Shown: one piece after another, positions 10,330 through 28,703 of the stretch
Layout: every line of letters starts with the position of its first letter
Numbering within the stretch: the stretch's first letter is position 1
DNA from: Candidatus Zhuqueibacterota bacterium
GTDB taxonomy: Bacteria; Zhuqueibacterota; Zhuqueibacteria; JANLFK01; Oleimicrobiaceae
Length of the DNA: 64,000 nt
Direction: 5' to 3'
Assembly (NCBI GenBank): GCA_024655945.1
Contig: JANLFK010000002.1
Span: 242,610 to 306,609, forward strand
The notes under the pieces: model-generated
Told to the model about the DNA's origin: nothing
The model's database searches: none
The model's input: the letters and a program-made list of their open reading frames with translations, nothing else
Program-made: the position numbers and the translations under genes

Positions 10330-12267
10330 CTATTGCTGCCCTCTCGTGTAGTTCAGCAAGCCGCCGGCAAGGATGATCGCCCGCTGTCGTTCGCTCAACT
10401 CGTAGACCAACTCCAGTTCCTCGCCTGTGGCTACTTTGCGCGCTATGAGCGGTTGCCCTTTCAGCAGCCGCATCTTTAACTCGGGCAGCTCGAGTTGGTC
10501 CCCCTGGGCAAGACGCTCATAGTCCTCTTCGACCTTGAAACGCAGCGGCAGGATGCCAAAGTTGATGAGGTTGGCCGTGTGAATGCGCTCCAAGCTCTTA
10601 GCAATCACCGCCTTGACGCCGAGGTACATGGGACAGAGCGCGGCATGTTCTCTGGACGAGCCCTGGCCGTAGCTCCAACCGCCCACCACGATGTTGAACA
10701 CCCCCCTTTCCTTGTTCTTCATACAGCGCTCCGGGAAGGTAGGGTCGATCGGCTCGAACACGAAGGTTGCATACTTGGGCACGTTGGAGCGGTACTTGAG
10801 GCGCGAGCCGGCAGGCATGATGTGGTCGGTGGTGATTTTGTCGCCCACCTTCAGTGCCACTTCCACGCGCAAGGCATCTGGCAAAGGCGTGTTGGTGGGC
10901 GGGTCACCGATGTTGGGGCCACGCAGAATCGTCACCTTTTCTGGGTGCTCCGCAGGCGGAAGAATCAAACTGTCATCAATGGTGAACCGCTCCGGCATGG
11001 GGATGGCCGGATAGGGCATCCCTAAGTCGCGGGGATCGGTGATCCCGCCGGTGAGTGCACAAGCGACGGCCGTCTCCGGGCTGACCAAGTAGACCTGTGC
11101 CGACTTTGTGCCGGAGCGGCCCTCAAAGTTGCGATTGTTGGTGCGGATGGAGACGGCATTGGTGGGAGGAGCCTGGCCGTTGCCGATGCAAAAGCCGCAT
11201 GTTGCTTCCATGATGCGCGCGCCCGCGGCAATGAGGTCGCTCAGCGCGCCGCTGGCGGCAATCATGCGCAGCACCTGCTTGGACCCCGGAGCAACAACAA
11301 AGCTGACCTCCGGATGCACAGTTCGCCCTTTCAACACCGCGGCCACGGTCAGCAGGTCCTTCACCGAGGAATTCGTGCAGCTACCGATGCACACCTGGTC
11401 AACCTTGGTACCCGCTATGTCCCGAACGCGGCACACATTGTCGGGGCTGTGCGGCTTGGCAATCATCGGCTCGATGGTGGAAAGGTCCAGTTCGATCACC
11501 CGGTCATACTCGGCGTCTGGGTCAGGAGCAAGCAGCACCCACACGTGCTCGCGCCCCTGTGCCTTCAGGAATCGCCTGGTTACCTCATCGCTGGGGAAAA
11601 GCGACGTGGTCACTCCCAGTTCGGCGCCCATGTTGGTGATGGTCGCCCGCTCTGGGACCGACAGCGTGGCGATGCCTGGCCCGCCGTATTCGATCATCCA
11701 GCCCACATTGCCCTTGGTCGTGAGCATCTCAAGCACCTTGAGGATGACGTCCTTGGCGGCGACCCACGGCTGCAGTTGACCGGTGAGCAGGATCTTCAGG
11801 ACCCTTGGATAGGTGAGGTAAAAGGCGCCACCACCCATGGCCACCGCCACGTCCAGTCCGCCCGCGCCGATGGCCATCATCCCCAGGCCGCCGCCCGTGG
11901 GGGTGTGGCTGTCTGAGCCGAGCAGCGTCTTGCCCGGCACGCCAAATCGTTCCAAGTGCACCTGGTGGCAGATGCCATTTCCCGCCTTGGAGAGATAGAT
12001 CCCGTACTTGGCAGCCACCGACTGCAGGTAGCGGTGATCGTCGGCGTTCTCGAATCCGTCCTGGAGCGTGTTGTGGTCGATGTAGCTCACCGACAGCTCG
12101 GTCTTGACGCGAGGAATCCCCATGGCTTCGAACTGAAGATAGGCCATGGTGCCGGTGGCATCCTGGGTGAGCGTCTGGTCGATGCGGATAGCCACCGGCT
12201 CGCCGGCCTTCATTTGGCCTTCCACCAGGTGAGCAGCAACAATCTTTTGAACAAGATTCTGTCCCAT
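10330..12267 (-). CDS. Aconitate hydratase (aconitase family, 645 aa)
   Basis: N-terminus MGQNLVQKIVAAHL... and aconitase-family Cys ligand regions (e.g. ...CIGSCTNSS...) are present. Confidence 0.9.
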   Translation of the reverse strand: MGQNLVQKIVAAHLVEGQMKAGEPVAIRIDQTLTQDATGTMAYLQFEAMGIPRVKTELSVSYIDHNTLQDGFENADDHRYLQSVAAKYGIYLSKAGNGICHQVHLERFGVPGKTLLGSDSHTPTGGGLGMMAIGAGGLDVAVAMGGGAFYLTYPRVLKILLTGQLQPWVAAKDVILKVLEMLTTKGNVGWMIEYGGPGIATLSVPERATITNMGAELGVTTSLFPSDEVTRRFLKAQGREHVWVLLAPDPDAEYDRVIELDLSTIEPMIAKPHSPDNVCRVRDIAGTKVDQVCIGSCTNSSVKDLLTVAAVLKGRTVHPEVSFVVAPGSKQVLRMIAASGALSDLIAAGARIMEATCGFCIGNGQAPPTNAVSIRTNNRNFEGRSGTKSAQVYLVSPETAVACALTGGITDPRDLGMPYPAIPMPERFTIDDSLILPPAEHPEKVTILRGPNIGDPPTNTPLPDALRVEVALKVGDKITTDHIMPAGSRLKYRSNVPKYATFVFEPIDPTFPERCMKNKERGVFNIVVGGWSYGQGSSREHAALCPMYLGVKAVIAKSLERIHTANLINFGILPLRFKVEEDYERLAQGDQLELPELKMRLLKGQPLIARKVATGEELELVYELSERQRAIILAGGLLNYTRGQQ

Positions 12268-12361: not shown

Positions 12362-13642
12362 CTACGCTGCGCCGACTTGCTTCTTGACCCAATCGGTTCC
12401 TACCGACTTCGGGCGCTCGATGGGTGCACCCATGGCGCGACCGACGATCAGTTGCGCGCACATGCCCAGAGCTCGCGAGACGCCGAACAGCACCGTGTAG
12501 TAGTCGAACTCCTTGAGGCCGAAGTAGTAGAGTAGCGCCCCTGAACCGGCGTCGACATTAGGCCAGGGGTTCTTGGCCTTGCCATGGGCCTGCAGCACCT
12601 CCGGCACCACCGCAAACAGCCGGTCGACGATCTGGAACACCTTGTCCTGCGCGCAGACGCGCTTGCCAAAGGCGTGGAAAGCGGTGAAGCGTGGGTCGGT
12701 GGCCCGCAGCACCGCATGTCCATAGCCAGGAATGACCTTGCCTGAATTCAGGGTGTCCCAGGCGAACTTTTTCAGCTCCTCATCGCTGGGCACGCCTTTG
12801 TACTTCTCCAGGATCTCCAACACGAATTTCAGGCATTCCTGATTGGCGAGCCCGTGCAGAGGGCCGGCCAACCCGTTCAGTCCCGCAGAAACCGCATAGT
12901 AGGCATCCGAAAGAGCCGAGCCCACCAGGTGGCAGGTGTGAGCGCTCACGTTGCCGCTCTCGTGGTCGCTGTGCAGCACCAGGTACAGGCGCATCAAGTT
13001 GGCGAACTCCCCGGTGGGGTCATCGAACCCCAGCATGCGCACATAGTTCGCACTCCAATCCAGCTCTGGGTCGCCCTTGATAAGCTTGCCATCCTTGAAA
13101 CGGATGCGGTACACACCCGCCGCCACCGCCGGCAGCCGTGCCAAGAGATTGAGCGAGTCCTCCAGCATCGGCTCCCAGTACTCGGTCTTGGTCATGCCCT
13201 CGTCGTAGCGCTTGCGGAACAGCGATTCGCGCTCCATCACCAGGATGGCCGTGTCGAACATGGCCATGGGGTGCGAATCCTTGGGCATCGCGCGCAGCAC
13301 AGCCCACACATACTCCGGGACCTTCGCGCGCTTGGTGAACTCATTGCGCAGGTCCTCCAGAGCGGCCTTGTCGGGCAGCTCTCCGGTGCACAGCAGATAA
13401 AACACCTCCTCGGGCGTCTCGTCGGTGAGCTGGGCGATGGGTATGCCTCTGATAATGAGCCCCTTCTCTGGATCCACCAAAGAAGTGTCGCAGATCAGAG
13501 ACTTGACACCGCGCATGCCGCCGTAGGCCTGGGCCACGGTGACTTCGGAGATGACCTTGTCACCGTGGGTTTTGACCAGGTTGGCAATGTCTTCTCGCAA
13601 ACGCGGGATCTGCTCAGCCAGTTTCTGCTTCAAGGTTGCCAT
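12362..13642 (-). CDS. Citrate synthase (eukaryotic-like ~430-aa type)
   Basis: MATLKQKLAEQIPRLRED... and the overall citrate synthase signature. A strong RBS AAAGGAGGGTG lies upstream. Confidence 0.92.
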   Translation of the reverse strand: MATLKQKLAEQIPRLREDIANLVKTHGDKVISEVTVAQAYGGMRGVKSLICDTSLVDPEKGLIIRGIPIAQLTDETPEEVFYLLCTGELPDKAALEDLRNEFTKRAKVPEYVWAVLRAMPKDSHPMAMFDTAILVMERESLFRKRYDEGMTKTEYWEPMLEDSLNLLARLPAVAAGVYRIRFKDGKLIKGDPELDWSANYVRMLGFDDPTGEFANLMRLYLVLHSDHESGNVSAHTCHLVGSALSDAYYAVSAGLNGLAGPLHGLANQECLKFVLEILEKYKGVPSDEELKKFAWDTLNSGKVIPGYGHAVLRATDPRFTAFHAFGKRVCAQDKVFQIVDRLFAVVPEVLQAHGKAKNPWPNVDAGSGALLYYFGLKEFDYYTVLFGVSRALGMCAQLIVGRAMGAPIERPKSVGTDWVKKQVGAA

Positions 13643-13837: not shown

Positions 13838-14263
13838 TCAACGTGCACCCGAGGCGCGGAAGGGGCTCGGCCCAAGTCTTCTCACGGTGTCCACAAAGTT
13901 GTTGACCATCTGCTGGAACTTGGGCGCCTCGGTGGCCAGGATCCACTCTAATCGGAGCCTTCGCGGGTCAACGCCGAACTGCCGCAGCATGCTGCGCAAA
14001 AGGGCAAACCGCCGCATCGTGCGGAAGTTGCCGCCGACGTAGTGACAATCGCCTGGATGACAACCGGCGATCATCACGCCGTCGGCGCCACGGCGCAGCG
14101 CTTCGATGACAAACTCTGGCTCCACGCGCGAGGTGCACTCCATGCGCACCACGGCAAAGTTCGGCTGCATGGGCAGCCGCGCCACGCCTGCCAGGTCCGC
14201 AGCCGCATCGGCACACCAGTCACAACAAAGCACCAAAACTTTAGGTTCGAACGCCGCAGTCAC
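13838..14263 (-). CDS. mvhD: MvhD-like (methyl-viologen-reducing hydrogenase delta subunit family) [2Fe-2S] protein
   Basis: N-terminus ...PKVLVLCCDWCADAAADLAG... and the ...AGCHPGDCHY... Cys motif typical of MvhD. Confidence 0.85.
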   Translation of the reverse strand: MTAAFEPKVLVLCCDWCADAAADLAGVARLPMQPNFAVVRMECTSRVEPEFVIEALRRGADGVMIAGCHPGDCHYVGGNFRTMRRFALLRSMLRQFGVDPRRLRLEWILATEAPKFQQMVNNFVDTVRRLGPSPFRASGAR

Positions 14264-14292
14264 GCCTCTCTCCTTGCCTCAGATTCCGTCTC

Positions 14293-17200
14293 TCAGCTCA
14301 GCGCCGCGCCGATCACCGCCATGAGCTGGTCGCGGGTCCTGCCCTGCTGTCGCATGGCGCCACTGGCACAGGCCGCCACACAGCAGCCGCAGCCAGTGCA
14401 CATGGCCTGGATGACCTCGGCGCGCTCCTTGTAACGCCCGTTCTCGCGCACGCGGTTGATGCGAATGGCATCGAACTCGCAGGCGCCTTCACAGATTCGG
14501 CAACCCGTGCAGAGCTCTTCGTCAGGGTGAGCGTACACCCCTTGCCAGGACAGTTCACCGCGTGTCAGCAGTGCCGTGACCCGCGCCGCAAGGGCATGGG
14601 CATGGGTCACCGACTCGCGCAACGAGCGTGGCGAGTGCGCCAGGCCGCCGACAAACACGCCTGCGCGGGCAAGGTCAAGCGGCCGGAACTTGCTGTTGAC
14701 TTCGGCAAAAAACCCATCTTCATCCAATGGCACGCGCAATACCTTGCTCAGTCTGCCGTTCTTGGCCGCGACCACACCGGTGGAAAGAACCACCAAGTCT
14801 GCGGTGAACAGGAGCATCTCGTCGATGATCTTGTCCAGCACAAGCACTTCCAGTTTGCCATTCCGCTGTCTGACCACCGGCTTCTGGGCTAAGTCGTAGC
14901 GGAGAAAGATTACCCCGGCCTCCCTGGCCTTGGTGTAGTATTCCTCGCTGAAGCCGTAGGTCATAATGTCCCGATTGAGCACGTAGACCGCCAGGTCTGG
15001 GTTGGCCGTCTTGAGGGCAAGGGCATTCCGGATGGCCTGCGAACAGCAGATGCGGCTACAGTAGGGCCGCCGCTCATCGCGGGAGCCCACACACTGAATC
15101 ATGACCACGCACTTGAGCCGCGAGGGGTTCAGTTTGCCCTTGGCGAGCCGTTGCTCCAGCTGGGTCTGGGTGAGCACCCGGCGGTTTTTCCCATACAGGT
15201 ACTCCTTGGGTTGGTACTCGACGGCACCTGTGGCCACCACCACCACCCCATGCTGCAGCTGGCGCTTCGCCCCGGAGGCCCGCCGCACCGTCGTGCGGAA
15301 GTTGCCCACGAACCCATCAAGACGTGTGACCTCCGAGCGGAGATGGACGGTGATGCGCGGATTGGCTCTGACCTTCTCGATAGTCTTCCGCACAAAATCG
15401 GCGACGTCCAGTCCCTCCAGGGTGCGGTCGAAGAGCAGCGCGTTGCCCCCGAGCTCTCCGCTTTTCTCCACCAAGTGGACGGCGAAGCCCTGGGCGGCGA
15501 TGTCCAGGGCGGCAACCATGCCGGTCACCCCGCCGCCGATGACCAGCGCCCGGGGCGTGACCTTGAGCACGCCCGGCGGTGCGGCAGTCGTGCTGCGCAG
15601 GCGCATGGCCGCTGCGTGGAGCAGGAACCTTGCCTTCTCGAGTGCCATTCCGCGGTCGGCGTGAATCCAGCCCACCTGCTCCCGCAACGGAACTACCTCC
15701 AACATGCGGCGATCAACTCCTGCCTCCGCCAACATCTGGGCGAAACGGTCTTCGTACAGGTGAGGTGAGCAGGCGCCAAACAGCACCCGGTTCAGCCCCT
15801 GCGCTCGGATGGCCTCTTTGACCCCCGCCAGGGTCGACTGGAAGCAGAGCAGGTCCACCACCGCTACATGCGCAACTCCGGGGAGGTTCCTTGCCGCACT
15901 GGCCAAGGCCTGCAGGTCGAGAACCTCCCCGACCTCTCCCTGGCACCTGCAGAGAAAGACTCCAATGCGCGCTTCTGCGCCTCGATGCTCTGCGGGGCTC
16001 AACGCCTGGTGTGCGCCGCCATGGTCACGCCGGCCAGGCTTGACCACGAGGGCTGCTTGTGCGGCAGCGGCAAGGCCCTGCGCCACGCTCTCGGGAATAT
16101 CGCGGGGCGCAGTCAGCGCGCCACAGGCAAAGACCCCGGCCCTTCCGGTGCTCACCGCAGAGAAGCCCGGGTACGAGACAAAGCCGTGCCGGTTCACCTT
16201 TGCCCCTATGGCCGAGGCAAGCGCGGCGCTCTGCTCGGCAGGGCCCAATCCCACCGAAAGAACCACCAGTTCGAACTCGCGCCGCTGGAATGAGCTGTCC
16301 TCGGCCTCGTACACCACGACCAGATTCTTGCTCGCCGGGTGTTCCTCCACCGCGGACACGCGGCAGCGCGTGAACGCCACTCCCAGTTCCTGTTGGGCCT
16401 TCTGATACACGCGGTGATACCCCTTGCCGAAGGCACGCACGTCCATGTAGAAGATCTGCGACTGTATTCCTGCCGCCTTGAGGTGCGCTGCCTCCTTGAT
16501 GGCAAACATGCAGCACGCCGACGAGCAGTAGTCGTGCTCGGCGTCCCGGGAGCCCACGCACTGGAGAAAAGCCACCGAAGCCGGAACTTTGCCGTCGGAG
16601 GGACGGCGCACGGCCCCTTGCGTCGGCCCGCCCTCGCTGGTGAGCCGCTCCAGCTCGGTGCTGGTCACCACGTTAGCAAATCGGCCATAGCCAAACTGAC
16701 TCAGCGAGGAGGGGTCAAATTCTTTGAACCCAAGGGCAGCCACAATCGCCCCGACGTGGAGGTACTGGGTGGTCGGTCCGGCATCCAGGGAGATGGCGCC
16801 GGTGGGGCAAATGCGCACGCATTCACCGCAGCGCGTGCAAGCGGCCGCGTCGATGGTGTACAGGCGCGGAATACCCAAGCCGTGGCGCACGTACACCGCC
16901 TTGCGCACGCTCAGCCCCTGGTTGAACTCGTCCTGGACCTCCACTGGACATACCGGAATGCAGCGGCCACACGTGATGCACTTTTCCGGGTCCACAAACT
17001 GCGGGCTCGTCACCATGGTGGCCACGAAGGCGCCAGGCTTGCCTTCCAGCGCGGTGAGCTGGCTATCAAAGACCACCTTGACGTTCGGGTAGAGGAGCCC
17101 ACGCCGCAAGCAGAAGCCGGACACCCCTTCACCGGGCACGGCCGGCAATAGCTTGCACAAGCCGCAATCGTCGGTAGGGAACAGCCTGTCGAGCTGCAGC

Positions 17201-17340
17201 ACCTTGCCGCCTAGCATCGACGACTGGTCCACCAGGTAGACGGGCACCCCCATGTCCGCCAGTTCGATGGCGGCGCGAATCCCGGCAACGCCTGCTCCCA
17301 CCACCAGGACTGCTTGAGTCTTCTCGCTTCGCTCCGCCAC
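14293..17340 (-). CDS. hdrA: HdrA-family flavin/Fe-S protein (heterodisulfide reductase subunit A-like). Unusually large at 1015 aa, with two HdrA-like FAD modules and an internal MvhD-like segment.
   Basis: Two dinucleotide-binding GxGxxG motifs (VVGAGVAGIRAA, VIGGGVTGMVAAL). Several CxxCxxCxxxCP ferredoxin motifs. An internal ...RIGVFLCRCQGEVG... MvhD-like region. Confidence 0.9.
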   Translation of the reverse strand: MAERSEKTQAVLVVGAGVAGIRAAIELADMGVPVYLVDQSSMLGGKVLQLDRLFPTDDCGLCKLLPAVPGEGVSGFCLRRGLLYPNVKVVFDSQLTALEGKPGAFVATMVTSPQFVDPEKCITCGRCIPVCPVEVQDEFNQGLSVRKAVYVRHGLGIPRLYTIDAAACTRCGECVRICPTGAISLDAGPTTQYLHVGAIVAALGFKEFDPSSLSQFGYGRFANVVTSTELERLTSEGGPTQGAVRRPSDGKVPASVAFLQCVGSRDAEHDYCSSACCMFAIKEAAHLKAAGIQSQIFYMDVRAFGKGYHRVYQKAQQELGVAFTRCRVSAVEEHPASKNLVVVYEAEDSSFQRREFELVVLSVGLGPAEQSAALASAIGAKVNRHGFVSYPGFSAVSTGRAGVFACGALTAPRDIPESVAQGLAAAAQAALVVKPGRRDHGGAHQALSPAEHRGAEARIGVFLCRCQGEVGEVLDLQALASAARNLPGVAHVAVVDLLCFQSTLAGVKEAIRAQGLNRVLFGACSPHLYEDRFAQMLAEAGVDRRMLEVVPLREQVGWIHADRGMALEKARFLLHAAAMRLRSTTAAPPGVLKVTPRALVIGGGVTGMVAALDIAAQGFAVHLVEKSGELGGNALLFDRTLEGLDVADFVRKTIEKVRANPRITVHLRSEVTRLDGFVGNFRTTVRRASGAKRQLQHGVVVVATGAVEYQPKEYLYGKNRRVLTQTQLEQRLAKGKLNPSRLKCVVMIQCVGSRDERRPYCSRICCSQAIRNALALKTANPDLAVYVLNRDIMTYGFSEEYYTKAREAGVIFLRYDLAQKPVVRQRNGKLEVLVLDKIIDEMLLFTADLVVLSTGVVAAKNGRLSKVLRVPLDEDGFFAEVNSKFRPLDLARAGVFVGGLAHSPRSLRESVTHAHALAARVTALLTRGELSWQGVYAHPDEELCTGCRICEGACEFDAIRINRVRENGRYKERAEVIQAMCTGCGCCVAACASGAMRQQGRTRDQLMAVIGAALS

Positions 17341-17377
17341 GTGCGTCGTCCCTCGCGCTTCTGTTGGTGGATATCCC

Positions 17378-18265
17378 TTAGGCGGCAGCCGCCGGTGACA
17401 CCTTGGCCAAAACCGCGTCTGGCCGCACCTTGTTCAGGCGGACCCCAAGGTCCTTCGGGTCGTACCCCATGGCAAGTCCCAAGACCTGGGGATAGAAAAA
17501 GACCGGAAGGGCGATTTCACGCTGGAACTGCTCTTCCACCTTCTTCTGGTTGTCCTCGTAGAGCACGCTGCAGAACGGGCAGATGGAGATGAGCGCGTCG
17601 GCCCCGGCAGCCCGCACATCACTCAACTTCAGGCCCGACAGTCCAAGCGCCGTCGTCTGCTCCACACCTAAGATGGCGCCACCGCAGCAGTACTTCTTGG
17701 TCTCGTAGCGGATAACTTCGGCCCCGGTGACAGCCACCAGCTCGTCCAAAGAGCGCGCCGCCTCGGGGTCGTCGAAAGCGTCATAGTTCCCTTTTGGGCG
17801 CACGAAGTGGCAACCATAATGCGGAGCCAGTTTCAGCGTCGTCAGGGGTCTGGTCACGTGCCGACGCAAATTGTCGATGCCATAGTCTTCGTACAGAATT
17901 CGCGCAAAGTGTTTCACTTTGACCGTGCCCCGGTACTGGCGATTGATCTTGCGCAGCTGGCGGTTCACCTGTCGCAACAGTTCAGGGTGCTGCTGCAGCT
18001 CGAGATTGGTCTCGGTGAGCACCGCCGAACATGCGCTGCACAGGCAGCAGACGTCCAGCCCTTGCTCCTCGGCCACCGCCAAGTTGCGCGCCGCCATGAG
18101 CAGAGTGGTCTGCGCATTGGTGGACTTGACAGGAAAGCCGCAACAGGAGAAATCCTCCACGTCCACCAACTCGATCCCCAGCCCGCTGGCAACCGCCCGC
18201 ACGGCCACTTCATAGTTCTGGCTGCGGATCGGCACCGTGCAGCCGAGAAAGAGGGCGTACTTCAT
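17378..18265 (-). CDS. hdrB: HdrB-family protein (two CCG domains)
   Basis: MKYALFLGCTVP... N-terminus and CCG motifs (...FSCCGFP...). Confidence 0.88.
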   Translation of the reverse strand: MKYALFLGCTVPIRSQNYEVAVRAVASGLGIELVDVEDFSCCGFPVKSTNAQTTLLMAARNLAVAEEQGLDVCCLCSACSAVLTETNLELQQHPELLRQVNRQLRKINRQYRGTVKVKHFARILYEDYGIDNLRRHVTRPLTTLKLAPHYGCHFVRPKGNYDAFDDPEAARSLDELVAVTGAEVIRYETKKYCCGGAILGVEQTTALGLSGLKLSDVRAAGADALISICPFCSVLYEDNQKKVEEQFQREIALPVFFYPQVLGLAMGYDPKDLGVRLNKVRPDAVLAKVSPAAAA

Positions 18266-18825
18266 GGCTGATTGGCCTCCGCCGCTTCGGTGTACTTGCC
18301 CATCCCGGTCATGCGAAAGATCTCCTGCACCTCGGGGAATGTCTTCCTGACCGGGGGAAGGCCTAAGCGCTGGCGCTTCTTGTTGTCAAAATCCTCCACC
18401 TCATAGAGGCGGCCAAACCTGCCCACTAACTCCGCCTGCTGGCGGAAAGTGGGGTGCAAATAGCCCTCGCGCGCAGCGATGTTCTTCACGGCAGTCATGA
18501 TATCGGTCACGCGCACCCCTTGCGGACAACGGTCGGCGCAGGTGTAGCAGCCAGAGCAAAGCCAGATGAAGTCACTGCTCAGCACCCGCTCCCTCATGCC
18601 CAGCAAGATCATATGCACCAGCTGCCGGGGATTGTAGCGCGCGTCCACGGCGTGCACGGGACAGGCGGCTGTGCACGTGCCGCAGGCAAAACAGCGCGCA
18701 CTGAGCTCGCCCCCTGGCTCCTTAGCAACCTCTCGCCAGAAGCTGGGGGTCAACTCCTCGAATCTGGTCATCGGCTTGCTGCCCTTCACGTTCGCCACGG
18801 TCAAGCTCCTCATCGCCTGCGTCAT
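18262..18825 (-). CDS. hdrC: HdrC-family 2x[4Fe-4S] protein
   Basis: Motifs CFACGTCTAACP and CSGCYTCADRCP. 4-nt overlap with hdrB. The start may be the internal Met at about 18771. Confidence 0.82.
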   Translation of the reverse strand: MTQAMRSLTVANVKGSKPMTRFEELTPSFWREVAKEPGGELSARCFACGTCTAACPVHAVDARYNPRQLVHMILLGMRERVLSSDFIWLCSGCYTCADRCPQGVRVTDIMTAVKNIAAREGYLHPTFRQQAELVGRFGRLYEVEDFDNKKRQRLGLPPVRKTFPEVQEIFRMTGMGKYTEAAEANQP

Positions 18826-19875
18826 CTACCGTGCGTTCATAATGGCCATGGAAAAGTCCTCGGCGGTCACGCCTGGCGTTTCCACTTCGTGTTCATCGCA
18901 GAATTCGCCCACCCGCTGCACAATGTCCTCGGGCTGGCGCTTTATCCCCTTCAGGGAGTTCTCCAAGCCAGCCAGTTCCTCCTTGGGATAGAAGGTGAAA
19001 TCGCCGGAAATGCCGAGGTCTTTGATGCGCTCCCGCTCCACCTCCTGCACCGTGCGGATCAGGCCGCCTGGGGCCTTGTGGATGCCGAAGGAGATCTCCA
19101 CGCCCTCCCGGATCTTCACCCCTGTGGCCACGCGCGGCGTCTTCTTGAAGAGGAACTCGGGGGAATTGAACTCCTGCTCCAGCCGCGCCATGGTCGCCCA
19201 AAGCTCGCTGGTCATCTCGGCCGGCTCCAGGGGGCCCACCAGCCGCGTGAAGTGCCGCACCAAGGCGCGCTTGATCTCTTCGCGAGGGGGCAGAGCACCG
19301 AGCTCGCGCTTCATGGTGGTGAGGTTCTCCTCCATGCTCTTGAAAATCTTGTCGCGAAACTTTTCCTCCGGCACCTTGAGCACGCGCACCATGGTCTCAT
19401 AGTCAAAATCCAAGAGGATGCCGCCGACGAAAACCATGCAATCGCCGATGTTAGCGCCGCCTTCGCCGGCGATCTTCCGCCCTTCGCCGGTGACGATGTC
19501 ATTGACCGGCCGGAAGCGGGCCTTGATGCCGAACTCGCGATAGGTCTCCACCGGAGCCTGGGAGAACCACTCGTAGATTTCGCTGATTTTCTTGGGGAAG
19601 TGGGGGTTGGAGCGTCGCCAGATGAGCTGGTAGAAGATCTGGTTCCCATCCAGATAGGTGGTGCCGCCGCCTACCTCGCGGCGCATGGCGGGAATTTTCA
19701 CCTTCTCCAAATACTCCAGGTCAATCTCCTGCTTGGCGTCCTGGAAGTAGCCGATGCTCACCAGCGGGTCTTGCGGCGAGACGATGACCAGGCTCTCCAC
19801 GCCCATGCGCGCCAAGGCGTGGAAGATGAGCATCGAATTCTGACCGGGAAGCTTGTCCAAGTAAAAGAGCTGCAT
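18826..19875 (-). CDS. Lipoate/octanoate-protein ligase family protein (BPL/LplA/LipB catalytic domain plus LplA-type C-terminal domain)
   Basis: Start at MQLFYLD, preceded by GGAGG. A conserved ...GRKIAGEGG... lysine region resembles the LplA active-site Lys. Embedded between hdrC and the glcF-like gene. Confidence 0.78.
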   Translation of the reverse strand: MQLFYLDKLPGQNSMLIFHALARMGVESLVIVSPQDPLVSIGYFQDAKQEIDLEYLEKVKIPAMRREVGGGTTYLDGNQIFYQLIWRRSNPHFPKKISEIYEWFSQAPVETYREFGIKARFRPVNDIVTGEGRKIAGEGGANIGDCMVFVGGILLDFDYETMVRVLKVPEEKFRDKIFKSMEENLTTMKRELGALPPREEIKRALVRHFTRLVGPLEPAEMTSELWATMARLEQEFNSPEFLFKKTPRVATGVKIREGVEISFGIHKAPGGLIRTVQEVERERIKDLGISGDFTFYPKEELAGLENSLKGIKRQPEDIVQRVGEFCDEHEVETPGVTAEDFSMAIMNAR

Positions 19876-19965
19876 GCCCGACCTCCGTGTTCGTTTCACC
19901 AAGGGTCTCCCTTGCTCCGTCTCGGGCCTGCTATGCCCGTCATCCCCCAATGCAGTGCACCGCCT

Positions 19966-21045
19966 TCAAGCGCCAGCCGAGCGCAGCGCGTCCCACACCA
20001 AGTCTGCCACGTCGCGCACGACGATGTCGCCCTCCCCTGCCTCAGCCAAAGACGTAGCGCCCTTCTTGAGGGTTTGCTCGCAGGTGGCACAAGAGGTGAC
20101 GATGGTCTTCGCCCCTGTGGCCATGGCCTGACGCACCCGGTTGCGCGCCAATTGCGCGGAGAGCTGCTCGTTGGAGGAAAGAATGCCGCCACCGCCACCG
20201 CAGCAGCGCGTGGTGTTCTTGCTCTTCGGCATCTCCTTCACTTCCGCGCCAATCGCGCTCAGCACGCGCCGCGGCTCTTCCACCACCTTGGCACCGCGCG
20301 CCAAGTCACACGGGTCATGATAGGTGACCGTCACTTCCAGCTTCTTGACCTTGTCGGCCGGGAGCTTTTCGGCCACCGCCTGCAAGAAGTGGCGCGTCGG
20401 GATACCGTACTCCTCTTTGAGGAAAACCGTGCAGGTGGGACAGAAGGTGATGGTGGGCTCTTTGGCCAGCATCTGGGCCAAGCGCTTCTTGTGCTCCTCG
20501 AATTTGTGCACAAAGCCCAGAGAGACCAGGGGAAACCCGCAGCAGATCTCCTCCTGCACTTTGGGCTTGAGGCCGATCATCTCGAGTATCTTGAGGTACT
20601 TTTTCACCTTATTCGGCCGCGCCAAGAACTGGCAGCCGATGAATACGCGCACCTCCCCCTCCTGCTTGGGCAACATCACTTCCTGGTCCCCGAAGATGTT
20701 GCCCGAGGCCATCACGTTCTCTGCCAGCATGATCTGGCCGGGGAAGGCCAGCCCCATGTCCACCAGCTCGGCGCGCGCCGCCCGCACGATCTGCGGCACT
20801 TTGACCTTGGAGGGGCAGCGCCGCTCGCAGTCCCCGCACATGGTGCATTCGTAGATCCTCTGCGCCACGCTTTCGTCCGCCTGGATCTCGCCGGTGAGCA
20901 TGCCGTACGCCAAGATGTTGCGCCCCCGTGCCGAGGTGCCATCCCAAAGAATCTCGTCAAAGGGCGGACAGACGTTCTTGCAGTACCCGCACAGAGTGCA
21001 GGTGATGAGTTCGTTCAGCCACGGTTTCAGATATTCGCCTTTCAT
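19966..21045 (-). CDS. HdrD/GlcF-like Fe-S protein: 2x[4Fe-4S] plus two CCG domains (glycolate oxidase Fe-S subunit / LutA / Dld-II partner family)
   Basis: CTLCGYCKNVCPP and CTMCGDCERRCP motifs, ICCGFP and CCGGGGG CCG motifs. Its ATG overlaps the glcD-like TGA stop (ATGA), and a GGAGGTG RBS is present. Confidence 0.85.
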   Translation of the reverse strand: MKGEYLKPWLNELITCTLCGYCKNVCPPFDEILWDGTSARGRNILAYGMLTGEIQADESVAQRIYECTMCGDCERRCPSKVKVPQIVRAARAELVDMGLAFPGQIMLAENVMASGNIFGDQEVMLPKQEGEVRVFIGCQFLARPNKVKKYLKILEMIGLKPKVQEEICCGFPLVSLGFVHKFEEHKKRLAQMLAKEPTITFCPTCTVFLKEEYGIPTRHFLQAVAEKLPADKVKKLEVTVTYHDPCDLARGAKVVEEPRRVLSAIGAEVKEMPKSKNTTRCCGGGGGILSSNEQLSAQLARNRVRQAMATGAKTIVTSCATCEQTLKKGATSLAEAGEGDIVVRDVADLVWDALRSAGA

Positions 21046-22478
21046 TGCGACACCTCCACAGGGTACCGTAGGTGGGTGATGAACCCATTTTCCCACTCCT
21101 GAATCTTGTGCGGGTTCATGATGTTGTTTGGGTCCAAAGCGCGTTTGACAGCCTTCATCGCCGCGATCAAGCTGGCGCGCTCCTGGCGGAAGTACGGCGT
21201 CTTGGTAATGCCAATGCCATGCTCACCGGTCACCGTGCCGCCCAGCTCCAGCACAATGTCATAGATTTCCTGCACTGCCTTGTCCGCCTGCCGCCAGTGG
21301 TCCGGGTTGGTGGGATCCATGAGCACTTTGGTGTGCAGATTGCCATCACCGGCGTGGCCGTAGGCGGGGATTTCGATGTCGTAGCGGTCCGAGACCTCCT
21401 GGAAGCGCACCACCGCCTCCGGCACTTTGGAGATGGGCACGGACATATCATCAGCGAGCATCACCGTGGCGTATTCTTCGCGCAGGGCGCTCAGCGAGGG
21501 GATCATCTGCTTGCGCCCCTTCCACAGCTCCTCCAGGCGCTTGGGGTCCTCACTAAAGTCCATGGACACGGCGTTGTTCTTCTTGCACACCTCGGTGACC
21601 TTTGCCAGCTCCTCCCGCACCGCCTGCAGATTGTTCCCGTCCACTTCGATGAGCAGGATGGCATCGACCTCGGGCAGCCCCAGGCCGGTGGCCTTGTTGA
21701 CCGCCTTGATGCAGGTGCCCGACATCAGCTCCATGTTCGACGGCAGGATAGGCACAGCGATGATGTCGGACACCGTTTGCCCTGCCTCGCGGATATGGGC
21801 AAACGCCGCTACGCACCCTGCGCGGTAGGTGGCCAAGGGCACCAGCTTGAGGGTGATTTCGGTGACGATGCCCAAGGTTCCTTCCGAGCCGACGAAGAGC
21901 TTCTCGAACTGGTAGCCGCTGGCCCCCTTCACTGAACGGGCACCGCACCGGGCAATATCGCCGGTGGGCAACACCACCTCCAGGCCAAGCACGACGTCCC
22001 GCGTGGCCCCGTACTTCAGAGCCTTATCACCCGAGGCGTTACAAGCAACCATGCCGCCAAGCGTTGCCGCCTCGCTGCTGGCAGGACCGGGGATGAAGAA
22101 CTTGTACTTTTTCAGGGCCGCGTTTAGGTGGTCGCACACCACCCCTGGCTCCACCACGCAGATCAGGTCCTCGACGCAGATCTCTTTGATCTTCTTCATG
22201 CGCTGCAGGTCGACCACCACGCCGTGGTCGATGGGCACCGAATGTCCACAGAGGGCGGTGCCGGCACCGCGCGGCACCACGGGGAATTTGAATTCGTTGG
22301 CCAGCTTCACGATCTGGGCGACCTCCTGCGTGTTGATCGGCTGCACGACCACATCCGGCACCTCGCGGTGGATGCCACCGTCAAAGGCGTAGACGTAGCG
22401 CTCGGCGATGCTGGTCTTGCAGCGGTCTTCGCCCACAATGCTCTGCAGTCGTGCGATGACCTCTTTCTTGAGCGCCAT
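21042..22478 (-). CDS. FAD-linked oxidase, GlcD / D-lactate dehydrogenase family (FAD_binding_4 plus C-terminal domain)
   Basis: MALKKEVIARLQSIVGEDR... and the GlcD-like FAD-binding region. Confidence 0.86.
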   Translation of the reverse strand: MALKKEVIARLQSIVGEDRCKTSIAERYVYAFDGGIHREVPDVVVQPINTQEVAQIVKLANEFKFPVVPRGAGTALCGHSVPIDHGVVVDLQRMKKIKEICVEDLICVVEPGVVCDHLNAALKKYKFFIPGPASSEAATLGGMVACNASGDKALKYGATRDVVLGLEVVLPTGDIARCGARSVKGASGYQFEKLFVGSEGTLGIVTEITLKLVPLATYRAGCVAAFAHIREAGQTVSDIIAVPILPSNMELMSGTCIKAVNKATGLGLPEVDAILLIEVDGNNLQAVREELAKVTEVCKKNNAVSMDFSEDPKRLEELWKGRKQMIPSLSALREEYATVMLADDMSVPISKVPEAVVRFQEVSDRYDIEIPAYGHAGDGNLHTKVLMDPTNPDHWRQADKAVQEIYDIVLELGGTVTGEHGIGITKTPYFRQERASLIAAMKAVKRALDPNNIMNPHKIQEWENGFITHLRYPVEVSQ

Positions 22479-22512
22479 GATCTTTCTCCTCTCTTTCGGT
22501 TCTCCGTGCCGC

Positions 22513-23759
22513 TCAATCCAACAGTGGCACGGTGATGCTGCCATCCATCAAGAAGATCACCTGACAATCAGGTCCTTTTTCTGCCAGCGCCTCGTCCAAG
22601 GCCTCCTGCACGCTGCGGAACGGCTTGATGAAGATTGCCTCAAGGTCCTTGTCCGGCAGGTCGGTGACCCCCCAGACCTGTGCCCAGGTATTGATCTCCG
22701 CCATCTTCGCTGCCTTGTGATAGCCGAGTTTGAACTCCTTGCCGATTCTTTCGATGGTGGCCCGGGGGGAGTCGCAACTGGAAAGCAGATCGAAAAAAGT
22801 GCGCTCGCCGATGCCGGTGCGGCACTTGGAGACCATGATGAGAATCCCGCCCTCTTTGAGCGCTAACTTTCCGTTGTCCAAGGCCTTCTGCGATTGATAA
22901 AGGTCCACATCCATTGGGTAGGGTGCCACCGAGACCACCACATCGGCCTTGCCGCGGATTTTCACGGTAAAGACCTCGTTGGCCTTGGCAATGCACGCGC
23001 GGAAGGAAGCATGGAGATCGCCTGCTGCTGCTGCATAAATACGCCGGTCCCGATCCAGGACCGTTTGGATGGAAAAGATCTCCTTGTCGGCGATGCTGCG
23101 CAAGGCATCGATCATGTCCTCGTGCACCGGGTTGCCTTCCAGCACCAGCGCCTTAGCCTCCAGGCGCAGCGCGTGCTTGTGGTTCTGCTCAATGGTCGCA
23201 TAGGAGGCAATGCCCGGGAGGAAGGACTTGCGGCCGCCCGTGTAGCCGGCAAAATAGTGGGGCTCCACCGAGCCGATGATGACAATCTTGTCCGCCTCCA
23301 CGCCCATGCGGTTGACGTACATTTCGGTGCCGTTCACCGAGGTGCCGATGTGCACCATCTCCTCCTGCTTGCGGCAGTCGTGGACGTAGATGCGATCTTT
23401 CAAGTAGGGATAATGACGCCCAAAGATAAAGTCGTATTCCTCCTGCGTCGGTGCCCGGTGCACACCGGTGGCAATCAAGAAACGGCTTTTTGTGAGAGGA
23501 ATCTTCGGCTGCAGGATGTCGAGTATCTTGGCGGTAGGAGTGGGGCGCGTGCCGTCGTTGACAATGAAAAGAACGTCTCGGGCGTCAGACAGGAATTCGT
23601 CGAACGGGCGCGATTGCAGCGGCGACGAGATTGCCGCCATGAGTGTTGCCATCTCATCGCCGACCACTACAGAGTTGGGGTGAAGCACGTGCATCACGTG
23701 GTGGTCGGCGATCTCCACCTGCTGCGCCTCTCTGCCGTACGGGATCGCAAGTCTCACCG
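22513..23759 (-). CDS. LarA-family (nickel-pincer-nucleotide-dependent lactate racemase-like, DUF2088) protein
   Basis: Architecture and length are typical of LarA homologs. GTG start chosen at VRLAIPYG, with GGAGAG 7 nt upstream. A long Arg-rich N-terminal extension from the first ATG was rejected. Confidence 0.75.
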
Positions 23760-23851
23760 TCGCTCTCCTCGCGGAAAGTGGACAACGCTCTGCAGCACCC
23801 CTCGCGCTGCTTACCCCTCGTTCGGCGGAGCACAAAGACCGCGCGGGCCCA

Positions 23852-24286
23852 CTACTTCTTCTTTTCGCGCTCCACCCGCTCCTTCTCACCTTCAAGGTAC
23901 TTGGGGATGTCGCCAATCTTCATGAGGCCGGCAAGCTGGGCATCCAAGTCAGAGGCCTCGATGACCATGATCCACCCGTCACCATAGGGGGACTTGTTAA
24001 TCAGGTTGGCCGTATCCTCGAGGGCGTTGTTCACCTCGGCAATGGTGCCGGTGAGTGGGCTGACGATTTTGCCCACCCACTTGCTGGATTGCAGCTTGCC
24101 CACCGTCTCCCCTTCAGAGACCTCGTCGCCTTCGAAAGGCAGGTCCACGTAGACGATCTCCCCTGAGAGCTTTTGGTAAAAGTCCGTCATCCCCACTCTG
24201 GCGCGGCCATCGCCCTCGGGCTTGACCCAAGTGTGCTCCCTGTGGTAGTAGAGATCGTCCGGGTAGTCGTAACCTTCAATTTCCAT
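23852..24286 (-). CDS. GcvH-family lipoyl-carrier protein (glycine-cleavage H protein / LbpA-like). First gene of the operon.
   Basis: Start at MEIEGYDYPDDLYYHREHTWVK with a GGAGGGAGCC RBS. Lipoyl-lysine context ...GKLQSSKWVGKIVSPLTGTI... matches the GcvH E-S-V-K-A region. Confidence 0.85.
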   Translation of the reverse strand: MEIEGYDYPDDLYYHREHTWVKPEGDGRARVGMTDFYQKLSGEIVYVDLPFEGDEVSEGETVGKLQSSKWVGKIVSPLTGTIAEVNNALEDTANLINKSPYGDGWIMVIEASDLDAQLAGLMKIGDIPKYLEGEKERVEREKKK

Positions 24287-24351
24287 GGCTCCCTCCTTGG
24301 TGATGCCGCAATGCAGGACAATTTGCCGAGCGCCACCGCCCGGAAACTGCA

Positions 24352-24394
24352 CGCCCGTGCGTGGCCATCCCCGCTGGCACGGGCGCACGCGTGC
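24352..24394 (-). promoter_or_regulatory. Structured 5' leader of the gcvH-led operon: a 9-bp GC-rich inverted repeat (CGCCCGUGC ... GCACGGGCG, 16-nt loop) plus an overlapping 10-bp palindrome GCACGCGTGC, between the predicted TSS and the RBS.
   Basis: Seen in the sequence. No recognisable glycine-riboswitch consensus. Confidence 0.3.
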
Positions 24395-24408
24395 GGCAAG
24401 GCCGCGCT

Positions 24409-24437
24409 ATTATACAAAATTCCCCCCTCAAAGTCAA
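24409..24437 (-). promoter_or_regulatory. Near-consensus sigma70 promoter for the gcvH-larA-glcDF-lplA-hdrCBA-mvhD operon: -35 TTGACT (24437..24432), 17-bp spacer, TG-TATAAT -10 (24414..24409).
   Basis: The minus strand reads GCTTGACTTTGAGGGGGGAATTTTGTATAATAGCGC. These AT-rich hexamers stand out in a >60% GC background, about 120 nt upstream of the gcvH ATG. Confidence 0.6.
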
Positions 24438-27593: not shown

Positions 27594-28703
27594 GTGGCAA
27601 GCGAACGCTGCAAGCTCTGCGGTCAGCCAGGATTAGTCAGTCGGGCCCTGGGCGTCTGTGCCAGCTGCATAGTGCAGCGGGAGGTGCAGGCAAAGGAATT
27701 CGTGCGGCAGGCGCATCGTGCGGCGCGCCGACCCTTTGATGTGCCCGACGAAATGCCCAGGGCCGCAGAGGGTGTGGGTTGCAAGGGGTGTGGCAACAAT
27801 TGCCGCATGCCCCTTGGCGGGCGCGGCTACTGCGGGCTGCGGCGCAACGAGGGCGGCAGGCTCATGCAACTGGCGGGCACGCCGCGCGGCGCCCTGGTGA
27901 GCTGGTACCACGACCCCCTGCCCACCAATTGCGTGGCAAGCTGGGTCTGTCCAGCCGGCGCAGAAGTCGGCTATCCCGATTTCCCCTATGCTCCCGGGCC
28001 TGAGTACGGCTACACAAACCTCGCCGTCTTCTACAAGGCGTGTAGCTTTGATTGCCTGTTCTGCCAGAACTGGCACTACCGGGAAGCAAAGCCCACCAAC
28101 AGACAGCGCTCTGCGCAGGAGCTGGCAGCAGCCGTGGACCGGCGAACCGCCTGCATCTGTTACTTCGGCGGTGACCCTGCGCCTCAAGTGGCGCACGCCT
28201 TGGCCGCCTCGCGTCTTGCGCTCCGTGCCAACGCAGGGCGGCCGCTGCGCATCTGCTGGGAGACAAACGGCAGCGTCGGCCTCCCTGCGCTGCGCAAGAT
28301 GGCGGATCTCTCCCTGCGCAGCGGCGGCTGCATCAAGATCGACCTCAAAGCCTTCACGCCGCAGCTGCACGAGGCGCTGTGCGGCACGAGCAACGCCCAG
28401 ACCATAGCGAATGTGGCCTGGCTGGCAAGGCTCGCCCGGCAACGCCCCTCCGTGCCCCTCCTTGTGGTCAGCACTCTGCTTGTTCCGGGCTACGTGGAGG
28501 CCGACGAGGTTCGTCGCATTGCCGGCTTTATCGCCTCCCTGCACCAGGACACGCCCTATTCGCTGCTCGCCTTTTACCCCCAGTTCTTCATGAGTGACCT
28601 TCCTGCAACTTCGCGGGAACAGGCCTACTCCTGCGTGGAGGCGGCACGGGCTGCCGGGCTGCGGCGCGTCCACTTGGGCAACCAGCACCTGCTGGGCCTG
28701 TAG
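27594..28703 (+). CDS. Radical SAM protein, PflA / AmmeMemoRadiSam-like, with an extra N-terminal Cys-rich (Zn-ribbon-like) segment
   Basis: CxxxCxxC core ...ACSFDCLFCQNWHY.... N-terminal CKLCGQ...CASC. The start codon may be a nearby GTG. Confidence 0.75.
   Translation: MASERCKLCGQPGLVSRALGVCASCIVQREVQAKEFVRQAHRAARRPFDVPDEMPRAAEGVGCKGCGNNCRMPLGGRGYCGLRRNEGGRLMQLAGTPRGALVSWYHDPLPTNCVASWVCPAGAEVGYPDFPYAPGPEYGYTNLAVFYKACSFDCLFCQNWHYREAKPTNRQRSAQELAAAVDRRTACICYFGGDPAPQVAHALAASRLALRANAGRPLRICWETNGSVGLPALRKMADLSLRSGGCIKIDLKAFTPQLHEALCGTSNAQTIANVAWLARLARQRPSVPLLVVSTLLVPGYVEADEVRRIAGFIASLHQDTPYSLLAFYPQFFMSDLPATSREQAYSCVEAARAAGLRRVHLGNQHLLGL

Follow-up and report, generated by a model that had tools for sequence, protein, structure and literature searches.

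Between positions 13838 and 24286 of the stretch analysed here (64,000 nt of contig JANLFK010000002.1, assembly GCA_024655945.1, from a Candidatus Zhuqueibacterota bacterium; hereafter the window) lie nine co-directional genes on the minus strand, which combine a heterodisulfide reductase (Hdr) module of the HdrCBA-MvhD type with a GcvH-like lipoyl carrier, a lipoate ligase-like protein (LplA-like), a GlcD-like dehydrogenase, an HdrD/GlcF-like iron-sulfur (Fe-S) protein and a LarA-family racemase. The preliminary description of this DNA had counted ten genes while itself naming nine, and nine is what we found; every family that it named was assigned by Pfam. Gene coordinates come from the deposited Joint Genome Institute (JGI) gene calls (metagenome 3300038743) and were re-derived from the window sequence, while the annotated parts of the window comprise gene and Pfam lists for 8.8-29.9 kb and 42.7-64 kb and open reading frames (ORFs) of more than 250 amino acids (aa) at 30-42.7 kb. 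In operon order, the promoter candidate, the leader and the genes are as follows.

24437-24409, minus strand: sigma-70-like promoter candidate, TTGACT-17 nt-TATAAT, 11/12 positions matching, about 120 nt upstream of the gcvH ATG
24287..24408, minus strand: 5' leader, about 120 nt long, closing with an AAGGAGG ribosome-binding site
23852-24286, minus strand: gcvH-like, 144 aa, Pfam GCV_H, lipoyl carrier of the K-W subfamily
22513-23757, minus strand: larA-like, 414 aa, Lar_N and LarA_C, family of 2-hydroxyacid racemases dependent on nickel-pincer nucleotide (NPN)
21042-22478, minus strand: glcD-like, 478 aa, FAD_binding_4 and FAD-oxidase_C, D-2-hydroxyacid dehydrogenase type
19966-21045, minus strand: hdrD/glcF-like, 359 aa, two ferredoxin CxxCxxCxxxCP motifs and two CCG domains
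18826-19875, minus strand: lplA-like, 349 aa, LplA-B_cat and Lip_prot_lig_C
18262-18825, minus strand: hdrC, 187 aa, two [4Fe-4S] motifs
17378-18265, minus strand: hdrB, 295 aa, two CCG domains
14293-17340, minus strand: tandem hdrA, 1015 aa, identified by alignment to methanogen HdrA
13838-14263, minus strand: mvhD, 141 aa, [2Fe-2S] electron-transfer subunit of the MvhD/FlpD type, FlpD (PF02662)

The JGI call placed the gcvH start at 24352, and we take the ATG behind the AAGGAGG as the likely start. From gcvH to mvhD the gaps measure 94, 34, -4, 90, 0, -4, 37 and 29 nt, with ATGA overlaps at the glcD/glcF and hdrC/hdrB junctions and with the lplA TAG directly abutting the hdrC ATG, which makes for translationally coupled junctions and agrees with the tiny or overlapped gaps described earlier. 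The accompanying claim that one near-consensus promoter precedes the set was borne out, with caveats: TTGACT-17-TATAAT is the sole sigma-70-like site on both strands of 12-26 kb at a scan threshold of 9/12, but shuffled sequence yields 2.3 +/- 2.0 such sites at this threshold, so that the site count alone is not significant, and the sigma-70 consensus may not fit the promoter rules of the FCB-group host lineage. Separate internal promoters or terminators had been named as signs against a single unit; the same scan returned 17 terminator-like matches, every one within coding sequence and none in the intergenic gaps, and one promoter-like site only, while internal promoters may lie inside the 90-94 nt gaps. 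A riboswitch or other structured leader upstream of gcvH was ruled out, as an Rfam search of the whole window, leader included, returned no match and the leader folded no better than shuffled sequence (z = -0.04).

Evaluating the neighbourhood of the ligase across genomes, we walked outward from matches to a ligase profile and obtained 80 species-level loci, in which the window proteins were matched to all ORFs and the remaining ORFs were clustered. Counted within 5 kb of the ligase and on the same strand, at least one redox partner (GlcD, an HdrD/GlcF-type CCG protein or Hdr) accompanied LplA in 57/80 genomes. Among these partners GlcD was found at 46/80 loci, Hdr subunits at 33/80 and an HdrD/GlcF-type protein at 30/80, with GcvH at 22/80; GlcD was joined by a CCG or Hdr partner at 40/80 and by Hdr, as in the window, at 24/80. 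The 80 loci belong to Zhuqueibacterota, Thermodesulfobacteriota, WOR-3, Stahlbacteria, TA06, Zixibacteria, Aerophobetes, Caldisericota, Clostridia, Thermoplasmatota and Promethearchaeota (a chromosome). A walk that started instead from GcvH homologues returned, in 6/6 contexts, MvhD, HdrL, HdrCB, LplA, a GlcD-CCG fusion or LarA. Conserved synteny and this independent walk together rule out chance juxtaposition, the outcome that the preliminary description had itself named as the one to exclude, and comparative genomics provides good support for the operon being a functional unit.

Four architectures could be told apart among the related loci. Architecture A, that of the window, reads GlcD-GlcF-LplA-HdrC-HdrB-HdrA/HdrL(-MvhD) with or without GcvH and LarA; in Thermoplasmatota, MvhG-MvhA-HycI-MvhD and a second HdrACB set precede this cluster, and one order seen there is MvhGA-HycI-MvhD-GlcD-GlcF-LplA-HdrCB-HdrL-MvhD. 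Architecture B, from Thermodesulfobacteriota, reads GntR-GlcD-GlcF-GcvH-HdrD-like-NarI/QmoC-like membrane protein-LplA, with GcvH sitting between two HdrD-type proteins and with GntR regulators that are LldR/PdhR-like. Architecture C, from WOR-3 and Stahlbacteria, reads GlcD-LplA-HdrC-HdrB-HdrA-MvhG-MvhA-HycI and has no separate GlcF, and architecture D combines GcvH-LplA with a GlcD::CCG fusion. At the archaeal loci the LplA-adjacent HdrC and HdrB are 54-66% identical to the window proteins whereas the Mvh-adjacent copies are 31-43% identical, and this closer relation of the LplA-adjacent pair suggests that the module moved between domains as a unit.

Individual loci vary these themes, with GlcF-LplA-HdrC-HdrB-OsmC-HdrL-MvhD-GcvH at L088 and L089, HdrL-MvhD-...-GcvH-LarA-GlcD::CCG-LplA at L090, HdrL-MvhD-...-GcvH...GlcD-GlcF at L091, LarA-MDH-MDH-LarA-GcvH-GlcD::CCG at L087 (MDH, malate dehydrogenase) and MvhD-OsmC-GcvH adjoining a [NiFe] hydrogenase at L086. 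The gene for an OsmC-family peroxiredoxin occupies 2637-3098 at L088/L089, between hdrB and hdrL, and 2380-2820 at L086, beside the gcvH; OsmC/Ohr peroxidases depend on lipoyl groups, and this placement may point to another role for the reduced carrier. One Syntrophomonadaceae metagenome-assembled genome (MAG) has a GcvH-like gene among three flanking LplA-like paralogues, and an HdrB-like gene lies upstream of them (L083, 2471-6062).

Turning to the Hdr module itself, the cysteines of HdrB at 9/41/42/76/79 and 152/193/194/229/232 form two full CCG motifs, which would ligate two non-cubane [4Fe-4S] clusters, and in methanogen HdrB such clusters on CCG ligands form the disulfide-reducing site. 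HdrC carries two CxxCxxCxxxCP motifs, and MvhD, with 161.9 bits to PF02662, also matches VhuD and the MvhD portion of HdrA2. HdrA aligns to methanogen HdrA (8rvu, 5odc) in three stretches, namely residues 10-387 (a domain binding flavin adenine dinucleotide, FAD, with an inserted ferredoxin), 455-686 (N-terminal domain, then the opening part of a second FAD domain) and 870-1014 (the end of the second FAD domain and a C-terminal ferredoxin). Both of its modules hold GxGxxG and CxGSRD...CSxxCC, and the ferredoxin motifs lie at 121-178 and 944-991. It is also 42% identical to and colinear with the HdrL of locus L055, except for HdrL residues ~176-808, and so lacks the ~630-residue Fer4_20/Pyr_redox_2 (NfnB/GltD-like) insert of the 1480-1660 aa HdrL-type proteins. 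Judged from these alignments, the window HdrA is the HdrL scaffold minus its insert, a tandem of two incomplete modules.

Giant HdrL-type HdrA proteins with the internal NfnB/GltD-like NAD(P)H module were seen at L055 (12379-17364), L058, L077, L035, L088, L090 and L091, whereas the HdrA of L081 carries a fused MvhD. After HdrL-MvhD there also stands, at L042, L051, L055 (~17.4-20.7 kb), L090 (5857-8999) and L091 (4746-8345), a trio of FrhB-like Fe-S, Fer4_22 and NAD_binding_1/DHODB_Fe-S_bind (NfnA/PyrK-like) proteins, which is probably another electron input or output module.

Compared with the HdrABC-MvhAGD complex of methanogens (5odc, 8rvu), the window module shares the two CCG motifs of HdrB, the two [4Fe-4S] sites of HdrC, an HdrA with FAD, CxGSRD...CSxxCC and ferredoxins, and MvhD, and relatives of the operon carry MvhA, MvhG and HycI beside the cluster. 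It differs in that its Hdr subunits score below the NCBIfam equivalog cutoffs (HdrB 270.7 against TIGR03288, cutoff 345.15; HdrC 121.2 against TIGR03290, cutoff 160; HdrA 794.7, cutoff 1100), in having the tandem fusion rather than a single HdrA, and in adding GlcD, the HdrD-like protein, the ligase, the lipoyl carrier and the racemase. Neither a hydrogenase nor an NAD(P)H module was present in the annotated window gene lists. Because the host is a bacterium, coenzyme M (CoM) and coenzyme B (CoB), which form the heterodisulfide of methanogens, are not expected here.

For the dehydrogenase pair, the GlcD-like protein scores 406.6 against TIGR00387 (glcD, cutoff 567.9), and among solved proteins it comes closest to 9qgz ('glycolate oxidase', 267 bits), Acetobacterium woodii LctD (7qh2_C, 258) and mouse LDHD (243), with D-2-hydroxyglutarate dehydrogenase more distant than these three. 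As these three score about equal, the GlcD sequence alone gives no choice of substrate. The HdrD/GlcF-like protein carries two full five-cysteine CCG motifs and two CxxCxxCxxxCP motifs; it scores 74 against the GlcF model (cutoff 333), and its best NCBIfam match is TfrB of thiol:fumarate reductase (146.6 bits, cutoff 385). The pair does not pass as a GlcDEF glycolate oxidase, with GlcD and GlcF both below their cutoffs and no separate GlcE gene in the operon gene list. The TfrB match points to a parallel in Methanothermobacter, where the flavoprotein and the HdrD-like CCG subunit of TfrAB couple the redox chemistry of an organic acid to a thiol/disulfide and Hdr regenerates the thiol. The parallel has limits, in that the HdrD-like protein stays well short of the TfrB cutoff, the flavoprotein of the window is of the GlcD (VAO) family rather than the fumarate reductase family, and TfrAB works with free CoM-SH and CoB-SH as thiols where the window system would use a lipoyl protein.

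The racemase finds its best NCBIfam match in malate racemase LarAH6 (379.5 bits, cutoff 500), scores 299.1 against the LarA model (cutoff 460) and has Mar2 (6d6z) as its closest solved relative. The NPN-binding and catalytic equivalents R75, H108, H174, K184, H200 and K298 are all present, and the motifs GVHR, EPHYFAGYTGGRKS, NH and YQSQK align with Mar2 and LarA. Its specificity positions read H-Y-F, Q-K and G-Y-H-K, to be compared with FF, V, W in LarA and YK, Q, K in Mar2 (Desguin et al. 2020); two of three are thus Mar-like (Q before the catalytic Lys, H-K in helix 14) and one is LarA-like (Y-F after His174). Genes of COG0277 and COG0247 are known neighbours of LarA homologues. The signals for the substrate of the operon look split, GlcD being lactate- or glycolate-like and the racemase partly malate-like, and from them we infer either lactate or malate.

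Several related clusters are adjoined by malate dehydrogenases, malic enzyme or genes of the tricarboxylic acid (TCA) cycle. At L087 (WOR-3 MAG JAOUFJ010000012, 3101-11059) the order is LarA, MDH, MDH, LarA, K-W GcvH and a GlcD::Fer4::CCG fusion of 832 aa, with both malate dehydrogenases exceeding the TIGR01763 cutoff, and L070 repeats this LarA/Ldh-family pattern ahead of GlcD-GlcF-LplA-HdrCB. Divergent from the type B cluster at L003 (1-3611) and L002/L010 (1-3612) stand genes for a CitE/HpcH-type lyase and for alpha and beta subunits that resemble succinyl/malyl-CoA ligase, though all below cutoff, and these genes could indicate citryl-CoA or malyl-CoA chemistry and hence a glycolate/glyoxylate or malate substrate.

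The ligase-like protein matches LplA-B_cat at 125 bits and, over residues 291-367 of the 374-aa ORF, Lip_prot_lig_C at 27.8 bits, and its accessory region also matches an LplB-like model (60.5 bits). It scores 135.5 against TIGR00545, below the cutoff of 280, and aligns weakly with solved LplAs (best 82 bits), with K134 (in GRKIAG) invariant in 21 orthologues and aligned with the 1vqz lysine. Orthologues are 56-66% identical across phyla and both domains, and the nearest homologue (96% identity) comes from a 'Candidatus Oleimicrobiaceae' MAG of the Zhuqueibacterota (formerly KSB1) within the FCB group. We read it as a dedicated ligase, which would charge the GcvH-like carrier. A radical-SAM gene at 27672-28703 was considered as a lipoyl synthase near the operon and rejected, having only weak AmmeMemoRadiSam/activase-like matches.

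The carrier is the one operon protein that scores above an NCBIfam equivalog cutoff (127.3 against TIGR00527, gcvH, cutoff 115.85); it scores 129 bits against PF01597 and aligns with the solved GcvHs of M. tuberculosis (E 5e-29) and T. thermophilus (E 4.5e-26), keeping a lysine that lines up with their lipoyl lysine. Around this lysine it reads LQSSKWVGK, and the tryptophan directly after the lysine (K-W) recurs in 27/27 GcvHs of the related loci and in 120/120 top database matches. The K-W motif can be written [E/Q]-S-x-K-W-[VLI]-G-[KR], or in short S-x-K-W-x-G-K, where canonical H proteins have ES(V/T)K(A/S)(A/V)SD. Both types occur among the 150 best representatives from a library of 1.84 billion proteins, and a neighbour-joining tree of 157 sequences, which carries no support values, placed 75/77 K-W proteins in one clade (precision 0.89, recall 0.97), with the canonical KA/KS proteins outside it and the lipoyl lysine present in 77/77 aligned K-W proteins. 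On this sequence evidence the carrier is of a separate clade, neither canonical GcvH nor the LbpA type of sulfur oxidisers, and appears to be a dedicated type of carrier for which lipoylation is predicted.

That the carrier might instead be a housekeeping H protein of glycine cleavage or of the reductive glycine system, with Hdr standing in for the L protein (dihydrolipoamide dehydrogenase), is suggested by its score above the gcvH cutoff and its alignment with solved GcvHs, but we judge this very improbable. The K-W motif replaces the canonical ESVKA(A/V)SD hairpin, the protein falls in its own clade, away from the housekeeping H proteins with which the preliminary description had asked whether it groups, and its consistent partners are GlcD, CCG proteins and LarA. 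Nor did GCV_T or GDC-P appear among the 25 commonest Pfam families (at least 2 ORFs each) of 150 neighbour ORFs in ~60 clusters, where a single occurrence could escape, or in the annotated parts of the window (8.8-29.9 kb, 42.7-64 kb and large ORFs at 30-42.7 kb), and a glycine-cleavage context was dropped. Public annotation pipelines name the K-W carriers 'glycine cleavage system protein GcvH', a label that probably misleads metabolic reconstruction of these MAGs.

The triad of Hdr-like proteins, GcvH-like lipoate-binding protein and dedicated ligase is also the hallmark of the sHdr-LbpA-sLpl(AB) system (Cao et al. 2018, PMC6067878), in which LbpA is essential and lipoate likewise acts outside 2-oxoacid dehydrogenases and glycine cleavage; rhodanese or Sulf_transp, moreover, make up 2/150 neighbour families at the related loci. 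Even so, a variant of this sulfur-oxidising system is scarcely probable at all, and the contrast already drawn in the preliminary description holds. The window carrier has zero cysteines and the K-W motif, whereas bacterial LbpA has two strictly conserved cysteines (PMC6067878); the ligase has two domains, whereas sLpl is a single-domain ligase without the small accessory (C-terminal) domain; and HdrA is long, of the ferredoxin-domain type and accompanied by MvhD. A second HdrC2B2 pair is missing from the operon, its further partners being GlcD/GlcF and LarA, which point to hydroxyacids, and neither the gene lists for 8.8-29.9 kb and 42.7-64 kb nor the large ORFs at 30-42.7 kb include TusA, DsrE or rhodanese. 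We rejected membership in sHdr on the missing cysteines of LbpA, the two-domain ligase and the type of HdrA.

Bringing these parts together, we lean, with moderate confidence, towards a system in which GlcD and the HdrD-like protein exchange electrons with HdrCBA-MvhD through the lipoylated GcvH-like protein as a shuttle, with confurcation driven by hydroxyacid oxidation as the likeliest form. In this soluble system GlcD, a D-specific flavoenzyme, and its HdrD-type Fe-S partner would interconvert a D-2-hydroxyacid and the 2-oxoacid, and two electrons would pass to or from the dithiol/disulfide of the lipoylated carrier where the HdrD-like subunit has its CCG (non-cubane cluster) site. The carrier would then be oxidised or reduced at the HdrB CCG site of the methanogen-type HdrCBA-MvhD, where protein-bound lipoamide would take the role that CoM-S-S-CoB has in methanogens, and the HdrA flavin would link this high-potential branch both to ferredoxin and to a mid-potential partner contacted by MvhD; in relatives, Mvh hydrogenase or HdrL's NfnB-like module may be that partner. 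The embedded ligase would lipoylate the carrier, and the LarA-family racemase would turn the L-substrate into the D-form for GlcD. Architecture B independently supports the shuttle, as GcvH there stands between GlcD/GlcF and an HdrDE-like membrane pair, mirroring methanogen HdrDE run towards quinone. The interpretation given in the preliminary description thus has partial support: it came through all three checks that it had named as able to overturn it (synteny, internal promoters or terminators, grouping of the GcvH), while its lactate or glycolate substrate, its direction and lipoamide as the redox substrate of the CCG sites are putative.

As to direction, the racemase in the operon and the LldR/PdhR-like regulators of type B favour hydroxyacid oxidation, in which hydroxyacid and reduced ferredoxin together would most likely yield a mid-potential product, an Hdr counterpart of the A. 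woodii Ldh-EtfAB. With the A. woodii lctABCDEF operon (7qh2) the system shares a GlcD-type FAD dehydrogenase, a LarA racemase and a flavin-based bifurcating module in one operon, LctD being the second-best solved match of GlcD and a GntR-type regulator being present in the Thermodesulfobacteriota version. It differs in having HdrABC-MvhD instead of EtfAB (no Etf genes were found in the operon or the annotated window parts), in the interposed HdrD-type CCG subunit, carrier and ligase, and in the lack of a permease in the operon and of an NAD-binding module in the window.

The same parts and the same shuttle could also run reductively, with MvhD taking electrons from H2, NAD(P)H or formate as mid-potential donor and HdrA bifurcating them between ferredoxin and a 2-oxoacid such as oxaloacetate or pyruvate, the high-potential sink reached through HdrCB, lipoyl-GcvH and GlcF/GlcD. 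This would conserve the energy of an exergonic keto-acid reduction that would otherwise be lost and leave LarA to turn the D-product into the L-form for central metabolism. Relatives pair the module with the Mvh [NiFe] hydrogenase or with the NfnB-like NAD(P)H module of HdrL, as in the forward Mvh-Hdr reaction of methanogens, and the reductive direction is equally compatible with these hydrogenase- and NAD(P)H-linked relatives. It would moreover be downhill from dihydrolipoyl to the 2-oxoacid by established potentials, and the two of three malate-type residues of the racemase, the L087 cluster with its malate dehydrogenases above the equivalog cutoff, and the TCA-cycle genes after the window operon all suit it. 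We nevertheless consider it rather unlikely, since the racemase in a catabolic-looking operon and the LldR/PdhR-like GntR of Thermodesulfobacteriota resemble hydroxyacid-utilisation operons such as A. woodii lct, the annotated window has no hydrogenase or NAD(P)H module, and the citrate synthase, aconitase and isocitrate dehydrogenase genes downstream form an oxidative segment that would use up oxaloacetate.

A further reading dispenses with the shuttle, making GcvH a structural or regulatory subunit of GlcD/GlcF, or letting Hdr keep a lipoyl protein reduced for thiol-dependent functions, OsmC/Ohr-type peroxidases for example, with electrons passing from GlcD/GlcF to Hdr directly through Fe-S clusters. 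It draws on P0241, a 1391-aa protein of the representative library in which three GCV_H domains are followed by GlcD, Fer4 and two CCG domains; this Rosetta-stone fusion argues for physical association rather than for lipoate chemistry, because the lipoyl lysine is lost in all three GcvH domains. The OsmC genes of L086, L088 and L089 also suit it, as do the WOR-3/Stahlbacteria clusters with GlcD-LplA-HdrCBA and no separate GlcF, where HdrCB could be the Fe-S partner of GlcD. The lysine is kept, however, in 77/77 aligned K-W proteins and 120/120 top matches, a ligase with an invariant catalytic lysine lies between glcF and hdrC in many genomes, the window operon has no OsmC gene, and GcvH sits between two HdrD-type proteins in Thermodesulfobacteriota, so that we regard a carrier without a shuttle role as improbable.

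Several observations weigh against the shuttle that we favour. By standard potentials (lipoamide ~-290 mV, pyruvate/lactate ~-190, oxaloacetate/malate ~-170, CoM-S-S-CoB ~-140) the step from hydroxyacid to lipoyl is uphill by ~100 mV, unless product removal, channelling or a shifted carrier potential intervenes, and CoM-S-S-CoB is a far better high-potential acceptor than lipoamide. The carrier clears the canonical gcvH cutoff, its mean identity to K-W proteins (42%) has only a slight edge over that to canonical ones (38%), and the tree behind the K-W clade is neighbour-joining without support values, while the lysine-free domains of P0241 mean that a GcvH fold may bind to GlcD/GlcF with no part played by lipoate. 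The window has no gene for a mid-potential partner of MvhD. Every related locus comes from a MAG; WOR-3, Stahlbacteria and most Thermoplasmatota loci have the ligase with no GcvH within 10 kb; and 19/80 ligase loci have none of the partners, such as L022 with its unrelated mix of a Pyr_redox_2/dimerisation protein, thioredoxin and metallo-beta-lactamase, so that the ligase clade is not exclusive to this system.

Downstream of mvhD, three genes of the TCA cycle continue on the same strand, with gaps of 195, 94 and 36 nt from mvhD through citrate synthase and aconitase to isocitrate dehydrogenase and no terminator-like site.

12362-13642, minus strand: citrate (Si)-synthase, 567.8 against a cutoff of 344
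10330-12267, minus strand: aconitase, from the gene call and Pfam
9082-10293, minus strand: isocitrate dehydrogenase, from the gene call and Pfam

This trio may be co-transcribed with the operon, and we treat it as context only. Were malate the hydroxyacid, the operon would yield oxaloacetate, a substrate for the enzyme of the very next gene, citrate synthase. Elsewhere in the window lie a lone RnfC-like gene (Complex1_51K, SLBB, RnfC_N; 62187-63515, minus strand), with no other rnf genes seen in the annotated part, and a NifS/NifU pair (60039-61250, minus strand).

The preliminary description had held that this is not a described pathway, and that statement now needs a qualification. A literature search, with subscription-only journals outside it, found no account of a GlcD/HdrD-LplA-HdrCBA-MvhD-GcvH(K-W) system, of its breadth or of the K-W clade, and a paper on the phylum Zhuqueibacterota makes no mention of Hdr, lactate or lipoate. 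The idea of GcvH serving HdrB, however, had been voiced by Kohtz et al. 2022 (PMC9723716), who speculated that a Culexarchaeia GcvH encoded next to HdrB could carry the unknown disulfide as a lipoyl group, CoM and CoB being lacking. That proposal is a one-sentence speculation without cross-phylum synteny or a K-W clade, and its GcvH lies beside HdrBC with the Ehe membrane hydrogenase, SdhA and CdhA, while the ligase, GlcD/GlcF and LarA play no part. According to papers on Asgard archaea and on Culexarchaeia, the disulfide that Hdr uses in these organisms is unknown.

The recurrence of this system in many uncultured bacteria and archaea suggests that, outside methanogens, Hdr may have its long-sought disulfide substrate in protein-bound lipoate. 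Many uncultured anaerobes that are unable to make CoM or CoB express their HdrABC-type genes at levels among the highest of all genes for energy metabolism. Tentatively, and with slightly less than even confidence, we extend the proposal to lipoyl K-W GcvH as the physiological dithiol/disulfide substrate of HdrABC/HdrL-MvhD in non-methanogens (Thermoplasmatota, Asgard archaea, WOR-3, Thermodesulfobacteriota and Zhuqueibacterota), and to a new modular family with one shuttle linking HdrD-type dehydrogenases (GlcD/GlcF for D-2-hydroxyacids) to three alternative outputs, namely bifurcating Hdr, a membrane quinone-linked HdrDE-like module and lipoyl-dependent peroxidases. If true, this would be a candidate answer to the 'unidentified heterodisulfide' of Hdr in non-methanogens, and the signature S-x-K-W-x-G-K together with the ligase and the partner dehydrogenase makes the question testable with recombinant proteins. 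It would also carry the non-classical role of lipoate, so far confined to sulfur oxidisers, into fermentative and syntrophic carbon metabolism in both domains, set an Hdr-based enzyme beside the confurcating lactate dehydrogenase that relies on Etf, and give a physiological context to the large group of LarA-family racemases, many of them malate racemases, to which no role in vivo has so far been assigned.

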